NCBI RefSeq assembly: GCF_016127575.1
Contig: NZ_CP066019.1
Location: 120,001 to 152,000 of the forward strand
Origin: Cupriavidus necator
Lineage (GTDB): Bacteria > Pseudomonadota > Gammaproteobacteria > Burkholderiales > Burkholderiaceae
Direction: 5' to 3'
DNA: 32,000 nucleotides
Part shown: in pieces, positions 2,540 through 24,353 of the stretch
How the letters are laid out: each line of letters starts with the position of its first letter
Position numbering within the stretch: position 1 is the first letter of the stretch
The notes under the pieces: generated by a model
Told to the model about the DNA's origin: nothing
The model's database searches: none
What the model saw: only the letters and a program-made list of their open reading frames with translations
Program-made: the position numbers and the translations under genes

Positions 2540-4077
2540 GTGCCGAACAGCTGCGCGTAGTCCTCGCGCAGCTGGCGCTTGAGCAGCTTGCCCGCCGTGT
2601 TGCGCGGCAGGTCCGCGACGAACACGATGCGCTTGGGCACCTTGAACGGTGCCAGTGCCTGGCGCGCATGGGCGATCAGCTCTTCCTCGGCGGCGTCTTC
2701 ATGGCCGCGCTTGCGCACCACGCAGGCGGCCACTGCCTCGACCCACTTCGGGTGCGGCAGTGCGAACACCGCTGCCTCGGCCACCGCGCCGTGAGTGTAC
2801 AGACACTCTTCCACCTCGCGGCTCGATACCAGCACGCCGCCTGAATTGATCACGTCCTTGATCCGGTCCACCACGTACAGGTAGCCCTCGGCATCCATAT
2901 AGCCGAGATCGCCGGAATGGAACCAGCCGCCGGTGAAGGCTTCAGCGGTCAGTTCGGGCTTGTCCCAGTACTCCGTCAGCAGTTGCGGCGAGCGATGCAC
3001 GATCTCGCCCAGCTCGCCGGGCGGCACGTCCTGCATGGTCTCGTCGACGATACGGGTCTCGACGTTCAGTACCGGCCGGCCGGCGGAGGCGGGGCGCCCG
3101 GCGTGTTCGTCGGGGCCCAGCACCGTGGCCAGCGGCCCGATCTCGCTCTGGCCGTAGCAGTTGTAGAAACGCAGTGCCGGCAGCTTCTGCTGCAGCTCAA
3201 GCAGCACCGGCACCGGCATGATCGAGGCCCCGTAGTAGGCCTTGGTCAGCGACCCCAGCCGCGCCGGATCGAAGTCCGCATGGCGCAGCAGCGCGATCCA
3301 CACCGTGGGCGGCGCAAAGAAGCTGGTGATGCCCTCGGCGTGGATGGTGCGCAGGCAATAGCCGGCCTCGGGGCTGTCGGCGATCAGCGTGGTGCCGCCG
3401 CACAGCAGCAGCGGCATCAGGAAGACATGCATCTGCGCCGAGTGGTACAGGGGCAGCGCGGCCAGCGAGTAGTCCGATTCGCGGATATCGCAGGCGGCAA
3501 TGGTGCTGACGTATTCGGCCAGCAGCGCGCGATGGGTCAGCACGGCACCCTTGGGGGCCGAGGTGGTGCCCGAGGTGTACAGGATCTGCGCAGGCGTGGT
3601 GTCGGTGAGCGAATCGGACACCGGTGCCGCGGGGCCGCTGGCGGCGGCTGCCAGTACATCGCGCACCTTGCCGCCGTGCAGCGTGCCGCTGACCTTGCAG
3701 GGCAGGCCCTCGACGCGGTCGGCCAGCGCCGGATCGGCAAAGATTGCGCTGGCGCCCGACTGCGTGACGATGTACTCGGCCTCCGCGCGCGTCATCGAGA
3801 AATTGACCGGCACATGGATCAGGCCGCTGCGCAGGCAGGCCAGCCACAGCAGCACATAGGCGTCTGAGTTCTTGCCGAAGGCGGCCACGCGGTCGCCGGG
3901 GCGCAGGCCCCATTGCGCCAGCGCGCCGGCCACGCGGGCCGCGGCCTGATCCAGTTGGCGATAGGTCCAGGCCCGTTCGCCGAAGCGGATCGCGGTCTTG
4001 CCCGGGCTGCGCCGCACGGCGCGGGCAATGGCGTCGGGAATGGTGTTGCGCAGGGCGCGCTGCTGCTCTGACTGCAT
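2536..4077 (-). CDS. AMP-dependent acyl-CoA synthetase/ligase (FadD-like)
   Basis: Start at ATG 4077 (MQSEQQRAL...) with a GGAGA RBS. AMP-binding motif YTSGTTSAPKG, plus GELGEIVHRSP, WFHSGDLGYMDAEGYLYVVDRIKD and a C-terminal PRNTAGKLLKR. Confidence 0.9.
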   Translation of the reverse strand: MQSEQQRALRNTIPDAIARAVRRSPGKTAIRFGERAWTYRQLDQAAARVAGALAQWGLRPGDRVAAFGKNSDAYVLLWLACLRSGLIHVPVNFSMTRAEAEYIVTQSGASAIFADPALADRVEGLPCKVSGTLHGGKVRDVLAAAASGPAAPVSDSLTDTTPAQILYTSGTTSAPKGAVLTHRALLAEYVSTIAACDIRESDYSLAALPLYHSAQMHVFLMPLLLCGGTTLIADSPEAGYCLRTIHAEGITSFFAPPTVWIALLRHADFDPARLGSLTKAYYGASIMPVPVLLELQQKLPALRFYNCYGQSEIGPLATVLGPDEHAGRPASAGRPVLNVETRIVDETMQDVPPGELGEIVHRSPQLLTEYWDKPELTAEAFTGGWFHSGDLGYMDAEGYLYVVDRIKDVINSGGVLVSSREVEECLYTHGAVAEAAVFALPHPKWVEAVAACVVRKRGHEDAAEEELIAHARQALAPFKVPKRIVFVADLPRNTAGKLLKRQLREDYAQLFGT

Positions 4078-6333: not shown

Positions 6334-8001
6334 TCAATCGAACTGGTACGAATAAGTCATGTTGATCCGCGGCGACCGACGGCTTGCATTGGTCGGCTTG
6401 TCACCTACCGGTTGTGCCACCGACAGATCCAGCGTGTAGTAGCGCCGGTCCGAGAAGCGCGCGCCAATGGCTACCGATGACAGGCTGCGGTGCGACAGCG
6501 ACACGCTGTTGGAAAACACGCGCGCCACGTCGGCCGACACATAGGGCTGGATGGTGCGCAGGTAGGTCATGTCGGGCAGGAACAGGCGGCTGATTTCCGC
6601 CGAGGCCCCCCAGCCCTTGTCGCCCGCCACTTCGCCGGCGGGATAGCCCAGCCCGAAGAAGCGTCCGCCGAAGCTGATCTGCTCGCCCGAGGCCAGGCGG
6701 TCGCCGCTGTACTGGCCCGCCGCGGCCACGGTGAGGCCGAAGCCCGCCGGCAGGTCTTTCGACTGCGACAGCAGCAGCCGCGTGCGGAAGAAGCTCAGGT
6801 CGTTGGTGTTGTTCTGGCGGCTCGCACCCAGCGCATCGAAACCCTTGTACAGGCCGAGCGTGGCGTTGCGGCTCACGCCTTCGCCGCGCTGAACGTAGGT
6901 CAGCTCCGCGGTGCCCACGCGCACGTTGGTGCCCAGCGTCACGCGCGTGCCGGTGGCGGTGTGGGTGTACCGCTCGAACTGGTCGGCGCCGTAGAAGCCG
7001 CCGGTCAGCGTGAGCGTATGCGCGTTGGACAGCAGCAGCGGATAGCTGAGCGAGCCGCCGATGCGCTTGGTGTCGTTGACGTAGCGCGGGTTGAACCCGA
7101 TCGCCTCCAGCGTGGCGTTCTGCGGCACGCCTCGGTAGTGCGAGGCATTGAGCCGCGCGATCATGCCCTCGGTGCCGAGCGGCTGCGCGTAGCTGGCGGC
7201 GTAGTACTCCTCGTTGTCGCGGCCCTTGGGGAACAGTGCCGAGACCGAGATCTGCTCGCCCAGCGGCGTCAGACTGTTGGTGGTCGCGGTGGCAATGGCG
7301 CGCAGGCCTGGCGACATGTATTCAATGCCGGTGCCGAAGGTGAACGGCTTGCGCTTGACGTCGAGCACCATCTCGCAGGCGCCGTCGGTGGTGGTCGGCG
7401 GCTGCACCGTGGCCGCCACCTGCAGCCCGGGCTGCAGGGCCAGTGCATTGACGTAGTGTTCGAAGCGGTCCTGGCGCAGCGGGCGGTCCTGCTGCAGCTT
7501 CTCGGCAATGGCGCGCAGCCGGCCCTCTGCCGGGCCCGCCTTGCCTGTGACCGTCACCTTGGCCACATAGCCTTCGACCACGGTGATCAGCACATCGCCG
7601 TTGGCAAAGTCCTGCGCCGGCACGAAGGCAAACGAGAGCGGATAGCCGCGGTCCTTGTACATCTGCGTCACCGTGTTGGCCGCTTCCAGCAGCTGCGCCA
7701 CCGTGATCTCGCGATTGGCCAGCGGCTTGAACTGCGCGGCTACCTCCTCGAACGGCAGCGTCTTCGCGCCTTCGATGCGAAAGCGGCGCGGTGTCAGGCG
7801 TGTATTGAGCAGGTCCTGCATGGCCGCCTGCGGCCGTTCGACCTGCACGGTCACGCTGCTGTCGGGCCGGGCCGGAGCAATCTTCGGGAGCGTCTGGGTT
7901 GGGTCGCCCTGGACCGGGCTGCGCGGATCGGCCTGGACCAGGCCGTGATGGAACGCGCCGACGCTGACCAGCAGCGCGGCAACGCGATGACGTGCACGCA
8001 T
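6334..8001 (-). CDS. ShlB/FhaC/HecB family outer-membrane transporter (TpsB, type Vb)
   Basis: 555 aa with a signal-like N-terminus. POTRA pattern FRIEGAKTLPFEEVAAQF...QMYKDRGYPLSFAFVPAQDFANGDVLITVVEGYVAKVTVTG. Barrel loop-6-like FGGRFFGLGYPAGEVAGDKGWGASAEISR. The C-terminus is a beta-strand ending YSYQFD. Confidence 0.9.
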   Translation of the reverse strand: MRARHRVAALLVSVGAFHHGLVQADPRSPVQGDPTQTLPKIAPARPDSSVTVQVERPQAAMQDLLNTRLTPRRFRIEGAKTLPFEEVAAQFKPLANREITVAQLLEAANTVTQMYKDRGYPLSFAFVPAQDFANGDVLITVVEGYVAKVTVTGKAGPAEGRLRAIAEKLQQDRPLRQDRFEHYVNALALQPGLQVAATVQPPTTTDGACEMVLDVKRKPFTFGTGIEYMSPGLRAIATATTNSLTPLGEQISVSALFPKGRDNEEYYAASYAQPLGTEGMIARLNASHYRGVPQNATLEAIGFNPRYVNDTKRIGGSLSYPLLLSNAHTLTLTGGFYGADQFERYTHTATGTRVTLGTNVRVGTAELTYVQRGEGVSRNATLGLYKGFDALGASRQNNTNDLSFFRTRLLLSQSKDLPAGFGLTVAAAGQYSGDRLASGEQISFGGRFFGLGYPAGEVAGDKGWGASAEISRLFLPDMTYLRTIQPYVSADVARVFSNSVSLSHRSLSSVAIGARFSDRRYYTLDLSVAQPVGDKPTNASRRSPRINMTYSYQFD

Positions 8002-8137
8002 GGCAAAACCCCTGTAAGGAAATACTGCGGCTATTGACGTCGCGTGCCACTGGCGCGGGAATTGCCGCTACCCCCGTGCGCCTGCCGTCCGATGCTGCCG
8101 GTTCAGCGCTTGGCCGCTACGTTGAATCTGGTGTGCT

Positions 8138-8184: not shown

Positions 8185-9597
8185 TTACTTCTGGCCGAGC
8201 GCGCCGGTCAGGCCGCCCAGCAGGCCGCCAACCAGGCCGCCGATGGGGCCGGTGGCGCTGGTGGTCGAAGTCTTGCTGGTGGTGCTGCCCGCGGTGGAGG
8301 TGGCGCCGCCGGTCACGGCGGCGACAACATTGGTGACGGGGGCCAGCGGGCTGGTGGTGCCAGTGCCCGCCGCGGCGCCGGTGACGCCGCCGACCACGCC
8401 ATTCACCACGCCGCTGACCGCGGTGGTGACCGGCGCCAGCGGCGAACCGGTGCTGCCGCCGGTGGCACTGCCAAGGCCGCCGGTGATGCTGCTGACCAGG
8501 CTGGTGACAGGCGCCAGCGGCGAACCCGTACCGCCAGCGCCTGCACCGCCAGTCAGCCCCCCGGCCAGCGCAGTCACGGGTGCCAGTACCGGGCTCAGCG
8601 CGCCCAGGCCGCCGCCGCTGGCGGGCCCGTTCACTGCGCCGCCCAGCGAAGCCACGGTCGTGCCGGTGGCGTTCACCACGCCGCCGACGCCCGAGACTAC
8701 CGGCGTGTTGGTCTGTTGCAGCGTGGTGCCGGCCGTCGCGAGCGCACCGCCCACGGCCGCCAGCAGGCTGGTGGTCGGTGCGCCCAGGCCCGTGGCCGCG
8801 CCGAGCGTCTGTGCGGCGCCGGTCAGCTGCGAGGTGATCGGCACGATCAGCTTGCTGGTGGTGGTGGTCACCTGCTCGACCGCGCCGGTCGACAGCACCG
8901 TGGTCAGCGTTTCGCCAGTGCCGCTCACCGTTTTGCCCAACTCGTTCACCACCGTGCCCAGCGGCGAGGTCAGCGGCGCCAGTGGCGCGAGCTGGCCGGT
9001 GCCAAGGCCACTGACGGCGGTACCGGTGCTGGATAAGGTCTTGCCAAGTTCGGTGACCACGTTGCCGGTGCTGGCTACCGTGGTGCCTACCGGATTATCC
9101 GAGTTCGGCATGCTGCCCAGGCCCGATTGCAGGCCCGTGGCCAGTGCCCCGATGGCATCGCCGGCGGAGGCTACGGCGTCGCCCAGGCCGGTTTGTGTCT
9201 GGGTCGGCACCAGCGGCAGGTTGCTGCTGCCGAGCTTGTCGCCAAGATCGCTGACCGTCTTGCCGGTACTGTCGAGCACCTTGCCAGTATTGTTGATGAC
9301 CTCGGCGGTCGGGGTCCGTGCGGTGGGCGTTTCGCCGCCGCCGGTATTGCCGCCATTGTTATCGCCAGTGCCACCCGTGCCGCCGCCCGTGCCACCGGTA
9401 CCGCCGCCGGCCACGTCGGTGCTGCCGCCGGAGCCACCCATGCCGCCGGTGCCATCGGTACCCGTGGTCTTGGTGCCGCCATTGGTGCCCGCCGTGTCGC
9501 TGGTGCCCATGGAGGTCGATCCGCTGCCGCTGGCGCAGCCACCCAGGGCCAGCAAGGTTGCGAGGAGTGCCGTTACGGCGAGTTGTTGTTTGCGCAT
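8185..9597 (-). CDS. Gly/Thr/Val-rich heptad-repeat lipoprotein (paralogue 1), unknown family
   Basis: Start at ATG 9597 (MRKQQLAVTALLATLLALGG|CASG, lipobox) with a GAGGGAA RBS. It has a Gly/Thr linker and 7-residue periodicity (TGKVLDS/TGKTVSD/LGDKLGS; TGNVVTE/LGKTLSS/TGTAVSG). Four C-terminal SPLAPVT repeats lie at 8332-8595. It is colinear with the ORF at 10328-11437. Confidence 0.8.
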   Translation of the reverse strand: MRKQQLAVTALLATLLALGGCASGSGSTSMGTSDTAGTNGGTKTTGTDGTGGMGGSGGSTDVAGGGTGGTGGGTGGTGDNNGGNTGGGETPTARTPTAEVINNTGKVLDSTGKTVSDLGDKLGSSNLPLVPTQTQTGLGDAVASAGDAIGALATGLQSGLGSMPNSDNPVGTTVASTGNVVTELGKTLSSTGTAVSGLGTGQLAPLAPLTSPLGTVVNELGKTVSGTGETLTTVLSTGAVEQVTTTTSKLIVPITSQLTGAAQTLGAATGLGAPTTSLLAAVGGALATAGTTLQQTNTPVVSGVGGVVNATGTTVASLGGAVNGPASGGGLGALSPVLAPVTALAGGLTGGAGAGGTGSPLAPVTSLVSSITGGLGSATGGSTGSPLAPVTTAVSGVVNGVVGGVTGAAAGTGTTSPLAPVTNVVAAVTGGATSTAGSTTSKTSTTSATGPIGGLVGGLLGGLTGALGQK

Positions 9598-9680
9598 GTT
9601 CTGTTCCCTCATTCCCGTCGTTTAAATCGCTCGGCCGCGCATCGCGTTCGTTTTCTGCGTGCGGCGGTGACGGATATGGC

Positions 9681-9695
9681 GCAATCGGTATGCCA
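9681..9695 (-). promoter_or_regulatory. candidate sigma-54 (-24/-12) promoter for lipoprotein 1 / TpsB operon
   Basis: The minus strand reads gcgcTGGCATaccgaTTGCgcc. The GG-N10-GC spacing is exact. It lies about 85-100 nt upstream of ATG 9597. Confidence 0.6.
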
Positions 9696-9749
9696 GCGCT
9701 GCGACGCGTCCTGGAGCGGACCCTGCGGAAGTCGGGGGTGGTGCCCGCA

Positions 9750-9770
9750 AAGCCTTGCCGGGCGCGGATT
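9750..9770 (-). promoter_or_regulatory. conserved 21-bp promoter-proximal element, copy A
   Basis: The minus strand reads aatccgcgcccggcaaggctt, 20/21 identical to 10074-10094 on the + strand. It is 60 nt from the 23-bp element and 54 nt from the -24 box. Confidence 0.5.
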
Positions 9771-9830
9771 CCAGGGAAGCGGTGGGACCTGCTCGCGGCG
9801 CTGCCGGGGATGGGGTGTCAGGGCGGCTGC

Positions 9831-9853
9831 GCGTTACGCGTTACGTAACGTGT
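9831..9853 (-). promoter_or_regulatory. 23-bp UAS-like element, copy A (contains palindrome CGTTACGTAACG)
   Basis: The minus strand reads ACACGTTACGTAACGCGTAACGC, 20/23 identical to copy B. It lies about 135-160 nt upstream of the minus-strand -24 box. Confidence 0.5.
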
Positions 9854-9990
9854 GTCGTCTGCAGGGAACAAGACAGCCGGAACGGCGGGCTTGCGACGAT
9901 GGCGATCCAGCCAGGCAAGCGCGCCGTGCCGCGCACTGCCACGGCCTCCCGCCACGGTCATCCGCGCCTCCGTGTTCCCATGTTCCCGGA

Positions 9991-10013
9991 ACACGTTACG
10001 TAGCACGTAACAC
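9991..10013 (+). promoter_or_regulatory. 23-bp UAS-like element, copy B (GTTACGT-AGC-ACGTAAC inverted repeat)
   Basis: ACACGTTACGTAGCACGTAACAC, about 125-145 nt upstream of the plus-strand -24 box. It overlaps the stem-loop cgtgttcc(9971-9978)/ggaacacg(9988-9995). Confidence 0.5.
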
Positions 10014-10073
10014 CTCAGGTCCGCGCCGCAACGGCATTTGTGTCCGGCCCGCAGCTACCCCGCATCACCCGGC

Positions 10074-10094
10074 AATCCGCGCCAGGCAAGGCTT
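10074..10094 (+). promoter_or_regulatory. conserved 21-bp promoter-proximal element, copy B
   Basis: aatccgcgccaggcaaggctt. It is 60 nt downstream of UAS copy B and 42 nt upstream of TGGCAC. Confidence 0.5.
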
Positions 10095-10136
10095 GCAGCG
10101 CCGCGGCCGGTTCCGTGCCGGCACCGCTGGCGCCGC

Positions 10137-10151
10137 TGGCACGCGCCTTGC
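10137..10151 (+). promoter_or_regulatory. candidate sigma-54 (-24/-12) promoter for lipoprotein 2
   Basis: ccgcTGGCACgcgccTTGCcatt is a near-perfect match to TGGCACG-N4-TTGC. It lies about 177 nt upstream of ATG 10328. Confidence 0.65.
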
Positions 10152-10327
10152 CATTGGTTGTCCAGACGCGCCGACGATCTCGCGTTCCACGGTCTTGCCG
10201 TTCCGCTTCGGAGCGGTCCGCCAGAGGAACAAAGCGGGACACCGGGGAGGCTCGTCGGCAATCCCATGCGGCGCACATAAGACAAGACGGCCGGCAGCAC
10301 CGTGGCCAACAAGACAGGAGAAGGGCA

Positions 10328-11437
10328 ATGAAAATCAAGCATCCGTCGCAGCATGGCATGACCTCACTGGCCGCGGCCGGCGTGGCCGCCCTTGCGTTGC
10401 TGATGGCAGGCTGTTCGTCCAGCGGTGGCGGCAGCGGCGCCAATCCGCGGCCGAACAGCGGCAACACCGACACGCCGGTCAACCCGGCACCGTCCGCATC
10501 GAGCGAGACCACGCCCACGGCCAAGGTGACCGAAGGCGCGGGCAATACCGTGGTGGCCACTGGCAATGCCATCAGTGACATCGGCAAGACTATCCAGGAG
10601 GCGCCGCTGCCGTTGCTGCCCACCACGGCGCGCGAAAGCGCCGGCGACGTGGTGATCAAGGCCGGCAAGGCGGTTGGCTCGCTCGGTGCCGGCGTGCGCG
10701 ATGGGCTGGGGCAGATGGGCTCGGTCGACAACCCGGTTGGCGTGACGGTGGCCAGCACCGGCAACGTGGTCCACGACGTGGGCGAGGCGTTGATCAGCGG
10801 CGGCGACCTGGTGTCTGGCCTGGGCACCGAGAAGCTGGCACCGCTGGCACCGGTGACCACCCCGGTGGGTGGCCTGGTCAGGCACGTGGGCATCGCGGTG
10901 CACGATGGCAGCTACAAGCTGAAAAGCGTGCTGTCCGAAGGCCCGGTCGCGCAGGTCACGAATTCGGTCAGCAAAGTCATCGTGCCGCTGACCAGCAAGG
11001 GCACCGACGGCACGCAGACACTGGGAGCGGCCACGCACCTGGGCGAGCCGGCCAACGGCCTGCTCTACAAGGTCGGCAATACGGTGGCTGCAGGCGGCAG
11101 CATGATCAGCAACACCCACGCACCGGTGGTCTCGCCGCTGGGCGGCGTGGTGACTGAGGCCGGCAAGACGGTCGCGGCCGCTGGCGCGCTCCTCAACGGC
11201 AATGGTCAGGGTGGCGGCAACCCGCTTGGTGGCCTGCTGGGCAACCTGCCGCTGGCCAAGGCTGGTAGCAACGGTGAGGGCGGTTCCGCGGGCGGCGCGC
11301 TCGGTCCCGTGACCGCGCTGCTGGCGCCGGTGACCGGACTGGTCGGCGGGCTGAAGCAAGGCGCACACGACAGCCAGGGTGGCAGCGGTGACCACAAGGC
11401 GTTGCAGCTGCCGCTGGTGGGTGGCCTGCTGCGCTGA
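10328..11437 (+). CDS. Gly/Thr/Val-rich heptad-repeat lipoprotein (paralogue 2), unknown family
   Basis: ATG 10328 after an AGGAGA RBS. Lipobox ALALLMAG|CSSS. Shares colinear blocks with paralogue 1: DNPVG.TVASTGNVV, LAPLAP.T, K.IVP.TS, QTLGAAT, PVVS..GGVV. Confidence 0.8.
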   Translation: MKIKHPSQHGMTSLAAAGVAALALLMAGCSSSGGGSGANPRPNSGNTDTPVNPAPSASSETTPTAKVTEGAGNTVVATGNAISDIGKTIQEAPLPLLPTTARESAGDVVIKAGKAVGSLGAGVRDGLGQMGSVDNPVGVTVASTGNVVHDVGEALISGGDLVSGLGTEKLAPLAPVTTPVGGLVRHVGIAVHDGSYKLKSVLSEGPVAQVTNSVSKVIVPLTSKGTDGTQTLGAATHLGEPANGLLYKVGNTVAAGGSMISNTHAPVVSPLGGVVTEAGKTVAAAGALLNGNGQGGGNPLGGLLGNLPLAKAGSNGEGGSAGGALGPVTALLAPVTGLVGGLKQGAHDSQGGSGDHKALQLPLVGGLLR

Positions 11438-11468
11438 AATGTCTCATCCCGGCTAGGTGTTTTCACGG

Positions 11469-11512
11469 TGCGCTGTCGCTCATCACCCCGTCGCAGCGCA
11501 TCTTTTTATTTT
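11469..11512 (+). terminator. possible terminator of lipoprotein 2 gene
   Basis: tgcgctg(11469-11475)/cagcgca(11494-11500) form a 7-bp stem with a large 18-nt loop, followed by TCTTTTTATTTT. Confidence 0.4.
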
Positions 11513-11514
11513 GG

Positions 11515-11546
11515 CTGGCATTGCGGCCGTATGACCGCAATGCCAG
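11515..11546. promoter_or_regulatory. perfect 12-bp-arm palindrome upstream of flp (candidate operator)
   Basis: CTGGCATTGCGG-ccgtatga-CCGCAATGCCAG. It lies about 260-290 nt upstream of the flp ATG and has no T-tract 3' on either strand. Confidence 0.45.
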
Positions 11547-11807
11547 GTTGCAGGCCGGTTCCCGGCCGGTCTGCCTGCTCTTTGACAACCTGTGGACCCG
11601 GGCGTGCCGGGTCGTTTCAAACGCGCGTCTTAACCCCTTTGGGTCATTGCTATCACCCGTAGGAGGGGTATGGTTGAGACATTCCATGTCTTAAAAAGAA
11701 AGCGCAGCAAGCGTGAAAAGTCGATAAAATAGCGGGCCACAGAGCACCGTGATAATCGAACGGGGGAAGCGTGATCGCGGCAACAGATCACTTCGGGAGT
11801 GGAAATC

Positions 11808-11984
11808 ATGAAACGACTCATTGCACGCTTTATTAAGGATGAGCGCGGAGCGACGGCTATCGAATATGGCCTGATCGTCGGGCTTGTTGCTCTGGCGATT
11901 GCCGTCGGCGCTGGCAAACTCGGCACCGAGCTTAACGCCAGCTTCGATCGGCTTTCGGTCACGGTTTCGGGATGGTTCAAGTAA
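11808..11984 (+). CDS. flp: Flp family type IVb pilin
   Basis: ATG 11808 after a GGGAG RBS. MKRLIARFIKDERG/ATAIEYGLIVGLVALAI is the canonical Flp prepilin leader, G/A cleavage site and EY motif. 58 aa. Confidence 0.9.
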   Translation: MKRLIARFIKDERGATAIEYGLIVGLVALAIAVGAGKLGTELNASFDRLSVTVSGWFK

Positions 11985-12005
11985 AGCCGAAACCATAAGA
12001 CCGGC

Positions 12006-12482
12006 GTGATTGCCGCGCTCCTCTGCGCGGCGACCCTCTACACAGACTTCCTCCACCGGCGCGTTCCCAACGCCTTGCTGGCGGCTGCCGTGCTGGCCCT
12101 CGGGCTGTCACTGCTCGCCGGACAGGGCATGGAACTGCCGCTAACCACGCGCCTGATCGGCGCCGGGCTGGGCCTTGCGGTCACACTGCCGGTATATGCC
12201 CTCGGGCAGATGGCGGCGGGTGACGTCAAGTTCCTGGTCGTGGCGGGGTTGTTCACCGGGCCGCAAGGACTGGTACTGGCATGGGTCGTCGGCAACCTGC
12301 TCGGGCTGGTGCACGCGCTGCTGGCGCTTGCACTGGGCGGTCGCGCGCCGGCTACAAGTCAAGCCATCGATCACCAGGACAGCGGACCTATTCCTACGGC
12401 GCAGTTTTCGCGGGCGCGCGGCATTCCATATGCCGCGTACCTGGCCGTGGGCGTGCTGGCCTGGATGGCTGCGGGCCATTAG
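12006..12482 (+). CDS. tadV: A24 family prepilin peptidase (CpaA/TadV)
   Basis: GTG start. Polytopic membrane protein with the two catalytic-Asp contexts YTDFLHRRVPN and AAGDVKFLVVAG. Lies immediately after flp. Confidence 0.8.
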   Translation: MIAALLCAATLYTDFLHRRVPNALLAAAVLALGLSLLAGQGMELPLTTRLIGAGLGLAVTLPVYALGQMAAGDVKFLVVAGLFTGPQGLVLAWVVGNLLGLVHALLALALGGRAPATSQAIDHQDSGPIPTAQFSRARGIPYAAYLAVGVLAWMAAGH

Positions 12483-20921: not shown

Positions 20922-21265
20922 CCGCCATGTTCCGCATTGCCATCCCCGCGCTCTGCCTGCTGATGCTGGCGCCCGCCGCGCAGGCGCAGACCGACCGTGC
21001 CACGACCGAGGCCGCTGCCACCGGCATGCCGGCAGGCAGCCCGGCGCAACGCGAGATCGGTGCCGACACGCGCGCCATCCTTGCCATCCAGCGCGAAGGC
21101 ACGCAGGCTGGCCCCATGCTGCCGATGCACGGCGAGCAGGCCGCGCTGGGCTATGAGCGCTACCTGAACAGCTTCCGCTTCGCGCTGCCGGAGTTCTACA
21201 CGGGGCAGGCCAACGCCAGCACCGCGCGCGCCGGCTCCGCCGGCCAGATGCTGGGCGGCAAATGA
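20918..21265 (+). CDS. small secreted Tad-associated protein (DUF3613-like)
   Basis: ATGA overlap with tadD. 115 aa with signal peptide MTAMFRIAIPALCLLMLAPAAQA/Q. The segment TRAILAIQREGTQAG...GEQAALGYERYLNSF resembles proteins seen at this position in Burkholderiales tad loci (family name recalled from memory). Confidence 0.65.
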   Translation: MTAMFRIAIPALCLLMLAPAAQAQTDRATTEAAATGMPAGSPAQREIGADTRAILAIQREGTQAGPMLPMHGEQAALGYERYLNSFRFALPEFYTGQANASTARAGSAGQMLGGK

Positions 21266-22950
21266 GCTTGCGCCAGCCGCGGCCGCGCCGGGCACCTCGA
21301 TCCGCACGCGGCGCCATCAGTGTGATGGCGGCGCTGCTGATCGCCACCGTGGCGATCGCCGCGCTGGTGTCGATCGACGTGGGGCATGTGTTCATGCGCC
21401 AGCGGCAGTTGCAGAACGTGGTGGACCTGGCCGCGATGTCGGCGGCACAGCAACTCAAGCGAGCTGATAGCGCGGCGAATCTGAACGCCGCTGTGCTGGG
21501 TACGGTCAGGAATATCGGTGCGAAGAACGGGTATCCGTCGGGCATTGCAATGGGTTGCGGCGATGCCACCGGTGGCGGCGCGGATGCCATGACTGCCTGT
21601 CTTGGCGTGTGGGATCCGGCGAGCGGCGGGCCGAAGCATTTCAGCGCTACGTATGAAGCAACCAAGGTCTCGCCCAATGCCGTGCGCGTGCAGGCAACGC
21701 AGACCGTGCCAATCCTGTTCGTGATCGACGGCGGCAGCGGCCGGCAGCTGTTTGCTGAAGCGATTGCCAGCGGCAGTCCGCCGGTGGCGGCGTTTTCGCT
21801 GGGTACTGGGTTGCTGGACGTCTCCACCGCCAACAGCATGCTGAGTGTGTTGCTGGGCAATACGGTGAGCTTGTCGTTGGTGGACTGGCAGGGACTGGTC
21901 AATACCACCGTGACGCTGGACCAGTTGCGGCTCAAAGCGGGTGTCGGCACGGTGGACCAGCTGTTGAACACTTCATTGAATCTGCGTGATTTCTATGCGC
22001 TGGTGCTTGGCGCCGCTGGCCGCGACGCGCTGCTGACGACGATGCTGGGCAGCCCGCCAACCGCGCTCGGGGCCAGCGGGGCAGCGGCTACGGTGTCACT
22101 GGCCAGGCTGCTTGATCTTGGTTTGATGGCGCCTGCGGCATCGTCGGCGGTGGAGGTGGGCCTGAACGTGGCGCAGTTGCTGCTCGCCTCCGCGCAGGTG
22201 GCGCGAGGGGATACGGCAGTTGCCCTGCCACTGAACATACCCAATCTCCCGCTTGGCCTGGGGGGCATCAGCGCCAACCTGCGCGTGATCGAGCCGCCGG
22301 TGACGGCGGCAGGTCCGGCGCGACAGCTCTCCAGCAACCCGGACGCCTGGCAAACGACCGCAAGCTCATCCCAGGTAAAACTGACCCTGATGCTCCAGAT
22401 CACCTCAAATATCCTGAAACCGGTACTGGACGCCAACTTGAACGTGCCGCTCTATCTCGATGTGGCCAACGCCACCGCCGACCTGACCAAGCTGCAATGC
22501 GCGGCAAATCCTGGGGACCGCCGTGCCACGATGCACGTCAGAAGTGGTCTCGTCACGGCGTGCCTCACCGATGGCTGCACGGGTAGCGATGTGGTGCTCG
22601 GCCAGGCTAAGCTGGGGCTGTTCGACATTGCGGACGTGATTGCCACGGACGTCCCACGCTATGGCAGCACGGCTGGCCAGGAGGTCACGCTGGCACCGGG
22701 CGGGCATGCGCAAGTTGGTACCGCCGATCCGTTTGGCGGGTTGTTCTCGCAAGTGCTGGCCCTGAAGGTGCGGACTAGGCTGCTGGGCATCCTTAGTGTG
22801 CCCATTGATCTCGGCCCGCTACTCGCGCCGGTCGGGGCAGCGCTCGACGCATTGATCCCGCCGCTGCTCGCCAGCCTCGGCATCCAGCTAGGCACCGCCG
22901 ACCTCTGGGTCCACAGCATCGACTGCAACAATGCCGAACTGGTGTACTGA
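21262..22950 (+). CDS. tadG: TadG-like pilus assembly protein
   Basis: ATGA overlap with the previous gene. TadE/G-like N-terminus [47 protein letters not shown]. 562 aa. Confidence 0.8.
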
Positions 22951-22988: not shown

Positions 22989-24353
22989 ATGAAGACAGAC
23001 CGCTGGGCCTACGAAAACCTTGAAGTCTACGTGTGGGAAGGCAAGTACGAGATCGCCGACCGCGTCACGCGTTTCCTGGCGCCGCTGGGCGTGGACGTTA
23101 TCCGCGCCGGCGCACTCGAAGCCTTGCCTGCCGAGCCGCGCCTGAAGCCCTGCATCGCGGTGATCAGCGTGTCGGTGATCGGCGCGGCGCGCTTTTCGCT
23201 GGACTGGGAGGCCGCGCACGGCATGCCGGTGATCTGGGTGGCAGGCCCCGGCCGCGAGGCCGATCCCGGGCGCTTTCCGCCGGAGTACGCGCATATTCTT
23301 GCCGATGACTTCACCGGCGCCGACCTGCGCAGCCAGATCGGCAAGCTGCTGCCGCAACTGCTGGCCACGGACGCGCCCGGCGAGCGCGAGGCCGATCTGG
23401 TGGCCGGCTCGCCGGCGATGCGCCAGTTGCTGCAGCATGTGGAAACCTTCGCCGACTTCGGCAGCAACGTGATGCTGTATGGCGAAACCGGCGCGGGCAA
23501 GGAACGCATCGCGCGCCTGTTCCATGAGCGCAATGGCACCTACGGAAAGGGGCCGTTCGTCGCGGTCAACTGCGGTGCGATCCCTGACGGCTTGTTCGAG
23601 TCGCAGTTCTTCGGCCATGCCAAGGGCGCGTTCACCGGCGCCTCGTTCGCGCACCGTGGCTATTTCGAGCAGGCCAACGGCGGCACGCTGTTTCTCGATG
23701 AAATCGGCGACCTGCCGCTGTTCCAGCAGGTCAAGCTGCTGCGCGTGCTGGAAGAGAACGTGATCACCCGGCTGGGATCGACCCTGGCGGTCAAGCTGGA
23801 TTTCCGGCTGGTGGCGGCGACCAACAAGGACCTGCGCGACGCGGTGCGACAGGGGCGTTTCCGCGCCGACCTGTTCTTCCGCCTGGCGGTGATCGAGATG
23901 CGCATCCCCAGCCTGGAAGAGCGTGGCCAGGCCGACAAGGTGGCACTGCTGCAGTCCTTCCTGCGCCATATGCTGGGGGAATCCGGCTTCGACGCGCTGC
24001 CGCCGATGCCTGACTGGCTCAAGGGCGCGGTTGGCACCGCCTATTTCACCGGCAATGTGCGCGAGCTGCGCAACCTGGCCGAGCGTGTGGGCATCACAGT
24101 GCAGCAGACCGGGCACTGGGACGAAGAGCGCATCCGGCCGCTGTTCCGCTCGCTGCATCCGGGTGCGTTCGATGGCGGCGAGCGCAACGACCTGCGTGCC
24201 GATACGGAAGAGCGCCGCCGCATCCTGGCCGCGCTCGATGCCAATGGCTGGCGGCGGCAGGACACGGCGGCAAGCCTGGGCATCAGCCGCAAGGTGCTGT
24301 GGGAAAAGATGCGCAAGTACCAGATCGCCGACAGCGAGGCCGAGCCGGTCTGA
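22989..24353 (+). CDS. sigma-54-dependent Fis-family transcriptional activator (bEBP) with degenerate receiver-like N-domain
   Basis: AAA+ core with Walker [15 protein letters not shown] at 23625-23642 and Walker [12 protein letters not shown], plus [12 protein letters not shown]-terminal Fis [21 protein letters not shown]. The N-terminal ~125 aa lack the acidic pocket and phospho-Asp. Confidence 0.9.

Follow-up and report, generated by a model that had tools for sequence, protein, structure and literature searches.

How are the surface lipoprotein genes that lie beside a Tad/Flp pilus cluster switched on? The question is raised by a 32-kb stretch of Cupriavidus necator DNA (the window; all positions below are those of this whole stretch), in which two divergent genes for PF15984 lipoproteins, here termed lipoprotein A (8185–9597, minus strand) and lipoprotein B (10328–11437, plus strand), are separated by an intergenic region of 730 bp. 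In the literature searched, the manner in which Tad-linked collagen-like lipoproteins are switched on was not described. The analysis makes it highly probable that the two genes are served by two independent sigma-54 promoters, each driven by its own upstream enhancer in the form of an array of GTWAC pentamers, with a protein encoded by the Tad cluster as the likely activator.

Sigma-54 boxes were found in mirror image within the intergenic region at the positions given in the first-pass annotation, namely TGGCATACCGATTGC for lipoprotein A (-24/-12 at 9695–9681, minus strand; exact consensus TGGCAT-N5-TTGC) and TGGCACGCGCCTTGC for lipoprotein B (-24/-12 at 10137–10151, plus strand; exact consensus TGGCAC-N5-TTGC), both with GG-N10-GC spacing. 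These were the only two exact matches to TGGCAYN5TTGC in the window, where 0.33 were expected, and a count of two was reached in 4 out of 100 shuffles. No sigma-70-like promoter was found within 9500–11900. Based on the boxes we infer that both promoters depend on sigma-54 and that transcription starts at 9669 (A) and 10163 (B), 12 nt beyond the C in the -12 GC.

Upstream of each box lies a 23-mer, ACACGTTACGTAACGCGTAACGC on side A (reverse complement of 9831–9853) and ACACGTTACGTAGCACGTAACAC on side B (9991–10013). The two are identical at 20 of 23 positions, as had been reported, and were recovered as an inverted repeat in a repeat search. Their construction from GTTACGT/ACGTAAC inverted repeats was likewise borne out, the pattern GTTACGTN3ACGTAAC with at most 2 mismatches being present twice in the window against 0.00 expected. 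The conserved enhancer is in fact larger than the 23-mer with which it had been equated. As a GGGAACA on side A and a TGTTCCC on side B are also invariant, each enhancer reads, in the orientation of its gene, TGTTCCC, 14–15 nt and then an oriented 17-mer. This 17-mer, GTWACGTWRCNNGTWAC, forms the core, holds the dyad GTTAC-N7-GTAAC and usually follows a TGTTCCC. Enhancer A, or upstream activating sequence A (9833–9870, minus strand), is made up of the 17-mer GTTACGTAACGCGTAAC (9849–9833), an invariant block at 9833–9858 and the GGGAACA at 9864–9870, which is TGTTCCC in the orientation of gene A. Enhancer B (9973–10011, plus strand) is made up of TGTTCCC at 9973–9979 and an invariant block at 9988–10011 that includes the 17-mer GTTACGTAGCACGTAAC (9995–10011). 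On side B a TGTTCC-N10-GGAACA is itself a dyad. The distance from enhancer centre to predicted transcription start is roughly 172 nt for A and 160 nt for B.

Conservation and recurrence of the enhancer

Footprinting was performed on 10 genomes, that is, the window together with nine orthologous loci (eight from Cupriavidus and one from Ralstonia pickettii) whose orthologous proteins share 64–89% identity. The 17-mers of both sides were 100% identical in all 10 genomes, and the longest invariant runs of the intergenic region were 9833–9858 (26 nt) and 9988–10011 (24 nt). Invariant columns accounted for 0–15% of the DNA flanking the 17-mers and for 0% of the central spacer at 9890–9969. Both sigma-54 boxes were retained in 10 out of 10 aligned genomes with at most small changes. 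Lipoproteins A and B are paralogues with only 45% protein identity, and unconstrained DNA of the same age would consequently be unrecognizable, which argues that the invariant blocks are under selection. Conservation of both kinds of island and of the boxes in orthologous loci had been put forward as a check, and it was observed for the boxes and the 23-mer regions; the 21-mers that make up the second kind of island were only partly conserved. The earlier proposal of divergent sigma-54 promoters that arose with an inverted duplication of promoter plus gene and are kept under the same control is thus supported by conservation, by independent published predictions for R. solanacearum and by recurrence in distant genera and in metagenomes. 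The two modules appear to stem from an inverted duplication older than the split between Cupriavidus and Ralstonia.

Within-window statistics are suggestive, not decisive. When the intergenic region was resampled 300 times under a Markov model, a 21-nt inverted match of 20/21 or better arose 3 times, meaning that one island alone has a likelihood of about 1%. The evidential weight lies in the combination of two collinear islands with two boxes and above all in cross-species conservation.

The layout was also observed outside the aligned genomes. Boxes were kept at loci L012 and L018 and in R. solanacearum, Oxalicibacterium, Collimonas, Polaromonas and a Herminiimonas/Janthinobacterium-like genome (L017). 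GTWAC pentamers were found upstream of a sigma-54 box preceding a lipoprotein gene in Oxalicibacterium (L013; element GTAACGTTACACGTAAC, box TGGCACAGCGTTTGC), Polaromonas (L014; element GTAACGTTACGG...GTTACG, box CGGCACGCATGTTGC), Collimonas (L015; element GTTACGTTACATGTTAC, box TGGCACGCTCTTTGC) and the Herminiimonas/Janthinobacterium-like genome (element GTTACGTTACAAGTAAC, box TGGCATGCAATTTGC). The 17-mer itself was found upstream of the box in Oxalicibacterium, Collimonas and the Herminiimonas/Janthinobacterium-like genome, and looser GTWAC arrays in Polaromonas, R. solanacearum, Caballeronia and, weakly, Burkholderia. C. gilardii also has the arrangement of enhancer and box. The promoters of the divergent pair in R. 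solanacearum are only about 310 nt apart, with one central array (ACGTTACGgCGTAACGTGACACGGAAC) between them instead of two. The same ingredients were present in Caballeronia insecticola and, less clearly, at a PF15984 gene of B. arboris (possibly BCAM0695-like), where ACGTAAC and GTTACGT elements accompany a sigma-54-like box with one mismatch.

In a scan of roughly 261 kb of reference loci, every match to GTWACGTWRCNNGTWAC with at most 1 mismatch lay 157–180 nt upstream of the predicted start of a box of type TGGCAY-N5-TTGC in the same direction. Clusters of at least 3 GTNAC pentamers numbered 22 compared to 1.45 in shuffles, all 22 preceding either a PF15984 gene or, in the case of R. solanacearum, flp. 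The array upstream of R. solanacearum flp (GTTACGGTACGTTACGTGACACGCGTGAC...) lies approximately 270–300 nt from the gene (L019:7540–7579 and L010:6895–6933) with only a weak sigma-54-like box (CGGCCACGATGGAGC) in between. Its presence suggests that the pilin gene of this species may share the regulon.

A metagenome scan for exact copies of the Cupriavidus-type 18-mer CGTTACGTANCNCGTAAC returned 141 matches on 120 contigs, 127 of which had enough flank for a box to be sought 100–215 nt downstream in the orientation of the motif. A sigma-54 box was present downstream of 48 out of the 127 matches, corresponding to 48 out of 65 in contigs of at least 60% GC and 0 out of 62 in contigs of lower GC. 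Both controls, the same stretch upstream and the same stretch in the opposite orientation, gave 0, and the chance expectation was 0.012 per 115-nt stretch. Of the matches with a box, about half lie in front of PF15984 genes, in many cases divergent pairs accompanied by tad genes, and one such contig (L042) also carries an enhancer-binding protein with 83% identity to the candidate activator described below. Distances from enhancer centre to start clustered at 159–161, 169–173, 180–183 and 191–192 nt across 55 distinct classes of intervening sequence. The result is a ladder with a step of about 10.6 nt, the pattern to be expected if the activator works by looping and has to sit on one face of the helix, and sides B and A of the window fall on the 160 and 172 rungs, respectively. 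A second class of target was also found, a DUF7696 (PF24751) protein of 93–114 aa encoded behind GTTACGTAACCCGTAAC and a sigma-54 box (TGGCATGTCGTTTGC and variants), with a TGTCACGCG element about 20 nt upstream of the 17-mer. The distance in this class was 192 nt at L027, L036, L037, L054, L064, L079, L086, L133 and L135 and 181–182 nt at L070 and L122.

Two further groups of contigs were noted in the metagenome scan. L060 and L111 encode lipoproteins with true collagen Gly-X-Y repeats (GATGPTGDPGATG...) behind the same enhancer, with a GGGCA-type sigma-54 box 169–170 nt downstream. L047, L097, L104, L110, L117 and L120, with a GC content of about 51%, carry 2–4 copies of the 18-mer about 176 nt apart in non-coding DNA (for example L117:3259–3295 and 3446–3470); no sigma-54 box and no PF15984 gene were found near these copies.

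The second island, situated between enhancer and box, is a 21-mer (reverse complement of 9750–9770 on side A, 10074–10094 on side B). Its reported coordinates, its identity at 20 of 21 positions and its gaps of 60 nt to the 23-mer on both sides and of 54 nt (A) and 42 nt (B) to the -24 box were all reproduced. The 21-mer is the core of an element of about 31 bp, loosely CYGCAA-N17-19-TTGCRG with an inner GCAAGGC. Middle element A (9744–9776, minus strand), which has the inner core GCAAGGC, is an inverted repeat of 27 nt at 89%, and middle element B (10068–10098, plus strand) is partly conserved. In Cupriavidus and R. pickettii the element is recognizable on both sides, starts 82–83 nt after the start of the 23-mer at all loci and has the GCAAGGC core as its only invariant part. 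It is absent in R. solanacearum and in low-GC relatives, the interval being AT-rich in the latter. The two 21-mers match at 20/21 here versus about 17/21 in the closest relative, and the element has no resemblance to the GTWAC motif. Both islands had been interpreted as footprints of shared regulators; this interpretation is supported for the 23-mer with its 17-mer and not supported for the 21-mer, which is lineage-restricted, only partly conserved and no second copy of the enhancer site. Two identities for the 21-mer were rejected. The best matches to the integration host factor (IHF) site WATCAANNNNTTR carry 3 mismatches, at a background of about 12.6 such matches per kb, and as a shortened sigma-54 box (GGCAAGGCTTGCA) its spacing is 2 nt too short. 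The element is regarded as a putative accessory site specific to this lineage, serving either DNA architecture or a second regulator.

The candidate activator and rival explanations

The best candidate for an activator of both promoters is a sigma-54 enhancer-binding protein encoded at 22989–24353 (plus strand), which similarity along its entire length and its place in the genome identify as an orthologue of GtrR (BCAL1536) of B. cenocepacia. The protein matches PF00158 (Sigma54_activat, E=1e-61) and PF02954 (HTH_8, E=2e-11) and has the GAFTGA motif, Walker A, Walker B (LFLDEIG) and a C-terminal Fis-type helix-turn-helix (HTH). Its N-terminal 135 residues gave no match to a Pfam receiver domain, and the phospho-acceptor Asp is apparently missing. 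It is 58% identical to protein P0120 over 98% coverage. The published primers for cloning gtrR agree with both ends of P0120 (MRNTPAI..., ...TRESE). PDB entries 7VBS and 7VBW also match the protein (for 7VBS E=1e-164, residues 7–452). NorR, NtrC and other named families were rejected as all NCBIfam scores fell far below cut-offs; some databases auto-name the protein 'NorR'. The enhancer-binding protein ends the same Tad cluster in C. necator, R. solanacearum and the metagenome contig L042. Its recognition helix, ending in [YF]QI, is invariant in about 115 orthologues of 57–100% identity from Cupriavidus, Ralstonia, Paraburkholderia, Caballeronia, Burkholderia, Pandoraea and Pigmentiphaga, an invariance that parallels that of the motif. 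Synteny and analogy taken together make this protein somewhat more probable than not to be the activator of both promoters.

GtrR is described as working in B. cenocepacia with RpfR, the sensor of cyclic di-GMP (c-di-GMP) and Burkholderia diffusible signal factor (BDSF) (PMC12838280). No GGDEF/EAL gene was found in the window. A gene of this kind, associated with c-di-GMP turnover, lies beside the lipoprotein/Tad locus in R. solanacearum (L019:1–724) and Oxalicibacterium (L013:1–1720), which recalls the RpfR–GtrR partnership.

In the proposed mechanism each enhancer would act as an oriented array of GTWAC pentamers with GTWACGTWRCNNGTWAC as its core and a half-site-like TGTTCCC 14–15 nt upstream. 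A dimeric enhancer-binding protein with a Fis-type HTH would bind the arrays and assemble an AAA+ ring, and the ring would contact the closed complex of sigma-54 holoenzyme via DNA looping. Looping would explain why enhancer distances differ by whole helical turns. The activator would most likely be the 22989–24353 protein, encoded last in the neighbouring Tad/Flp cluster, in which case expression of both surface lipoproteins would be turned on jointly with the pilus or in parallel to it. A wider proposal is that the GTWAC array is the cognate enhancer of the whole GtrR family and that GtrR, published as a regulator at sigma-70-type promoters, has as its main role the dedicated activation, through sigma-54, of a conserved module for adhesion that occurs throughout Burkholderiales. 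The module would include the PF15984 lipoproteins, flp in some lineages and the DUF7696 protein, with the position of the enhancer quantized by helical turns. We consider the evidence on this wider proposal to be evenly balanced.

Several observations weigh against two enhancer-driven promoters under the Tad-cluster protein. Support is comparative throughout. Many of the metagenome loci are related, so that their counts do not represent independent events, and distances of 146, 157, 167 and 177 nt fall off the ladder. No convincing IHF site was found between enhancer and promoter. C. necator probably has many enhancer-binding proteins, and B. cenocepacia is predicted to have 20 (PMC5295037). 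The remaining observations bear directly on a rival explanation in which promoters and enhancers are real, the arrays are bound by another enhancer-binding protein encoded elsewhere and the Tad-cluster protein controls other genes. Consistent with this, the DUF7696 targets have the 18-mer and a box with no tad or enhancer-binding-protein gene in their flanks (up to about 15 kb per locus), and the motif was not found upstream of flp in the window or upstream of the 22989–24353 gene itself. The GtrR targets reported in Burkholderia are moreover different genes, bclACB and cepI, which are not known to have sigma-54 promoters. Against another activator stand the synteny of the 22989–24353 protein with PF15984 genes in Cupriavidus, Ralstonia and contig L042, the parallel invariance of recognition helix and motif, and the array upstream of R. 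solanacearum flp. Furthermore, contact with host membranes induces BCAL1520–1524 and the flp genes of B. cenocepacia together with bcam0695, an unlinked PF15984 gene (PMC7970998, PMC10224339). On balance, an activator from elsewhere is doubtful, although it is the most serious of the rivals.

The two other rivals question the enhancers themselves. Dyad symmetry alone does not tell the class of the binding protein, and the palindromes could accordingly be operators for a repressor or a classical activator, with the true enhancer located elsewhere, for example in TGTTCCC/GGAACA or in the 21-mer element. The dyad TGTTCC-N10-GGAACA on side B and the conservation of the middle element within Cupriavidus can be counted in favour of this. 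It is nonetheless improbable, as the 17-mer keeps a fixed orientation and a helically phased distance of about 160–192 nt from the boxes across many lineages, which is the behaviour of an enhancer, and is the sole element common to all lineages, the 21-mer element being missing in most. The islands could also lack function and be mere remnants of the duplication or the outcome of gene conversion between sides A and B. The higher identity of the 21-mers here than in the closest relative would fit local conversion or chance, the latter at the frequency seen in the resamplings. Such an origin cannot readily be reconciled with 17-mers that stay invariant despite the divergence of orthologues, paralogues and flanking DNA, or with recurrence of the motif upstream of non-homologous leaders and genes. 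For the 17-mer it is effectively refuted by the sequence comparisons, and for the islands as a whole it is barely credible. Enhancers bound by an enhancer-binding protein thus account best for the conserved arrays.

Gene neighbourhood and 5' leaders

Lipoprotein A is a collagen-like protein of 470 aa (PF15984, E=1e-72; lipobox LALGG↓C) and lipoprotein B has 369 aa (PF15984, E=2e-77; lipobox LMAG↓C). PF15984 is the 'bacterial collagen, middle region' family (Collagen_mid), and both proteins have a lipoprotein signal peptide and G/T-rich tracts in their translations. Lipoprotein B is 100% identical to the C. necator protein P0121. A ShlB/FhaC-type outer-membrane transporter (TpsB-like; Pfam POTRA_2 and ShlB) is encoded downstream of lipoprotein A (6334–8001, minus strand). 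On the other side the Tad cluster begins with the flp pilin gene (11809–11984, plus strand; G/ATAIEY motif in the translation), followed by a prepilin peptidase gene and, according to Pfam, a complete set through TadG (21262–22950). A terminator-like hairpin (11550–11574, plus strand) 3' of lipoprotein B separates this gene from flp, and the B unit is therefore probably monocistronic and apart from flp. The gene order lipoprotein, TpsB, flp/tad is kept in Cupriavidus, Ralstonia, Oxalicibacterium, Polaromonas, Collimonas and the Herminiimonas/Janthinobacterium-like genome. DNA near-identical to the window was not found in plasmid records.

Candidate sigma-54 promoters for the neighbouring genes were rejected. 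A TGGCAC is present for the TpsB gene and TTGC is absent at the correct spacing; no sigma-54 promoter was found upstream of flp in the window. The gap that separates the TpsB gene from lipoprotein A holds TGGCGCGGGAATTGC (8051–8065, plus strand), which resembles a sigma-54 box save for one mismatch, is directed into the 3' end of lipoprotein A in antisense orientation and is kept in L001, L002 and L006. Downstream of lipoprotein B, at 11510–11574, the terminator-like hairpin is preceded by a long palindrome (CTGGCATTGCGG-N8-CCGCAATGCCAG). In L001 this palindrome happens to match the sigma-54 consensus exactly, and the match downstream of gene B there was discounted, as it falls within a terminator-like palindrome. 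GC content falls to 53–55% in the flp region at 11440–11990. A close homologue of the ShlB-like transporter was also observed alone beside sulfur-oxidation (sox) genes in Pandoraea pulmonicola (L016), at a locus without a PF15984 gene, a tad cluster or the motif. As it is solitary there, the transporter is not strictly tied to the module.

The predicted transcription starts define two 5' leaders. That of lipoprotein A (9598–9669, minus strand) would be about 72 nt long and has 50–90% invariant columns; that of lipoprotein B (10163–10327, plus strand) would span 165 nt, is conserved and has a predicted structure. RNAalifold gave 37 pairs for leader B, 5 of them with compensatory changes. An Rfam search over 9000–12200 returned only two sub-threshold matches to microRNA families, taken as chance, and no family for the leader. 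Each leader has a GGA-rich stretch at its end, close to the ribosome-binding site.

Comparison with known systems

The closest described relatives of the lipoproteins are the collagen-like lipoproteins of the Burkholderia cepacia complex (Bcc-CLP), BCAL1523, BCAL1524 and BCAM0695; outer-membrane vesicles contain BCAL1524, which promotes both auto-aggregation and virulence (PMC10224339, PMC10303873, PMC7970998). The resemblance lies in PF15984 lipoproteins with a ShlB-like gene and an flp cluster as neighbours. Unlike the genes studied here, the B. cenocepacia pair (bcal1523/1524) is tandem, not divergent, and its promoters were not described in the literature searched. Tad-linked collagen-like lipoproteins are reported to be adhesion and virulence factors and vaccine candidates in the B. 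cepacia complex (PMC10303873), and a Tad cluster of this kind is needed for virulence of R. solanacearum (Wairuri et al. 2012, cited in PMC4371752). For R. solanacearum, Ray et al. (2015, PMC4371752) independently predicted RpoN boxes at RSp1093/RSp1094; they gave the genes as 'hypothetical' and mentioned no enhancer. These genes are the orthologous divergent pair beside the megaplasmid Tad locus, and their boxes TGGCATAGCAATTGC and TGGCATAGCGCTTGC match L019 and L010. Unlike in the window, the two promoters, only about 310 nt apart, share a single central array.

GtrR (BCAL1536), which forms a complex with RpfR, has been described as a global regulator in quorum sensing and c-di-GMP signalling, with binding to the promoters of bclACB and cepI (Yang et al. 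2017, as summarized in PMC12838280, PMC9684580 and PMC8174753). The 22989–24353 protein resembles it as a full-length orthologue located at the end of the Tad cluster, at the identity given above and with an identical recognition helix. A difference from what is proposed here is that the literature searched contains no GTWAC enhancer, no link between such an enhancer and PF15984 genes, and no sigma-54 targets or regulon for GtrR.

A defined enhancer motif together with a candidate activator constitutes a directly testable regulon. The motif allows further members to be found in any genome, R. solanacearum flp and the DUF7696 genes being examples, and could be used to verify the actual binding sites of GtrR. 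For the study of how looping is constrained at sigma-54 promoters, the helical-turn ladder provides clean, naturally occurring data.

NorR sites have the form GT-N7-AC and are found at the norV and norA promoters. The likeness to the present locus is that of short dyads upstream of a sigma-54 promoter as the candidate site of an enhancer-binding protein. Unlike NorR, the 22989–24353 protein is without a GAF domain, and the spacing of the motif does not fit GT-N7-AC. Sigma-54 promoters with upstream enhancers are textbook knowledge, and in NtrC-type enhancers, such as those of glnAp2, dyad sites of the form TGCACC-N5-GGTGCA lie more than 100 nt upstream of the -24/-12 promoter (Bush and Dixon 2012, cited in PMC4371752). 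The locus shares with NtrC/glnAp2 a -24/-12 promoter, 17-bp dyads more than 100 nt upstream, an AAA+ activator with a Fis-type HTH and, as proposed here, helix-face-dependent looping. It differs from NtrC in that recognition would occur through an array of GTWAC pentamers, in that the candidate activator is without a Pfam-recognizable receiver and in that the targets are adhesin-like lipoproteins. The comparisons support well the view that the layout itself is ordinary in kind and that what is new here is a GTWAC motif recurring across Burkholderiales.

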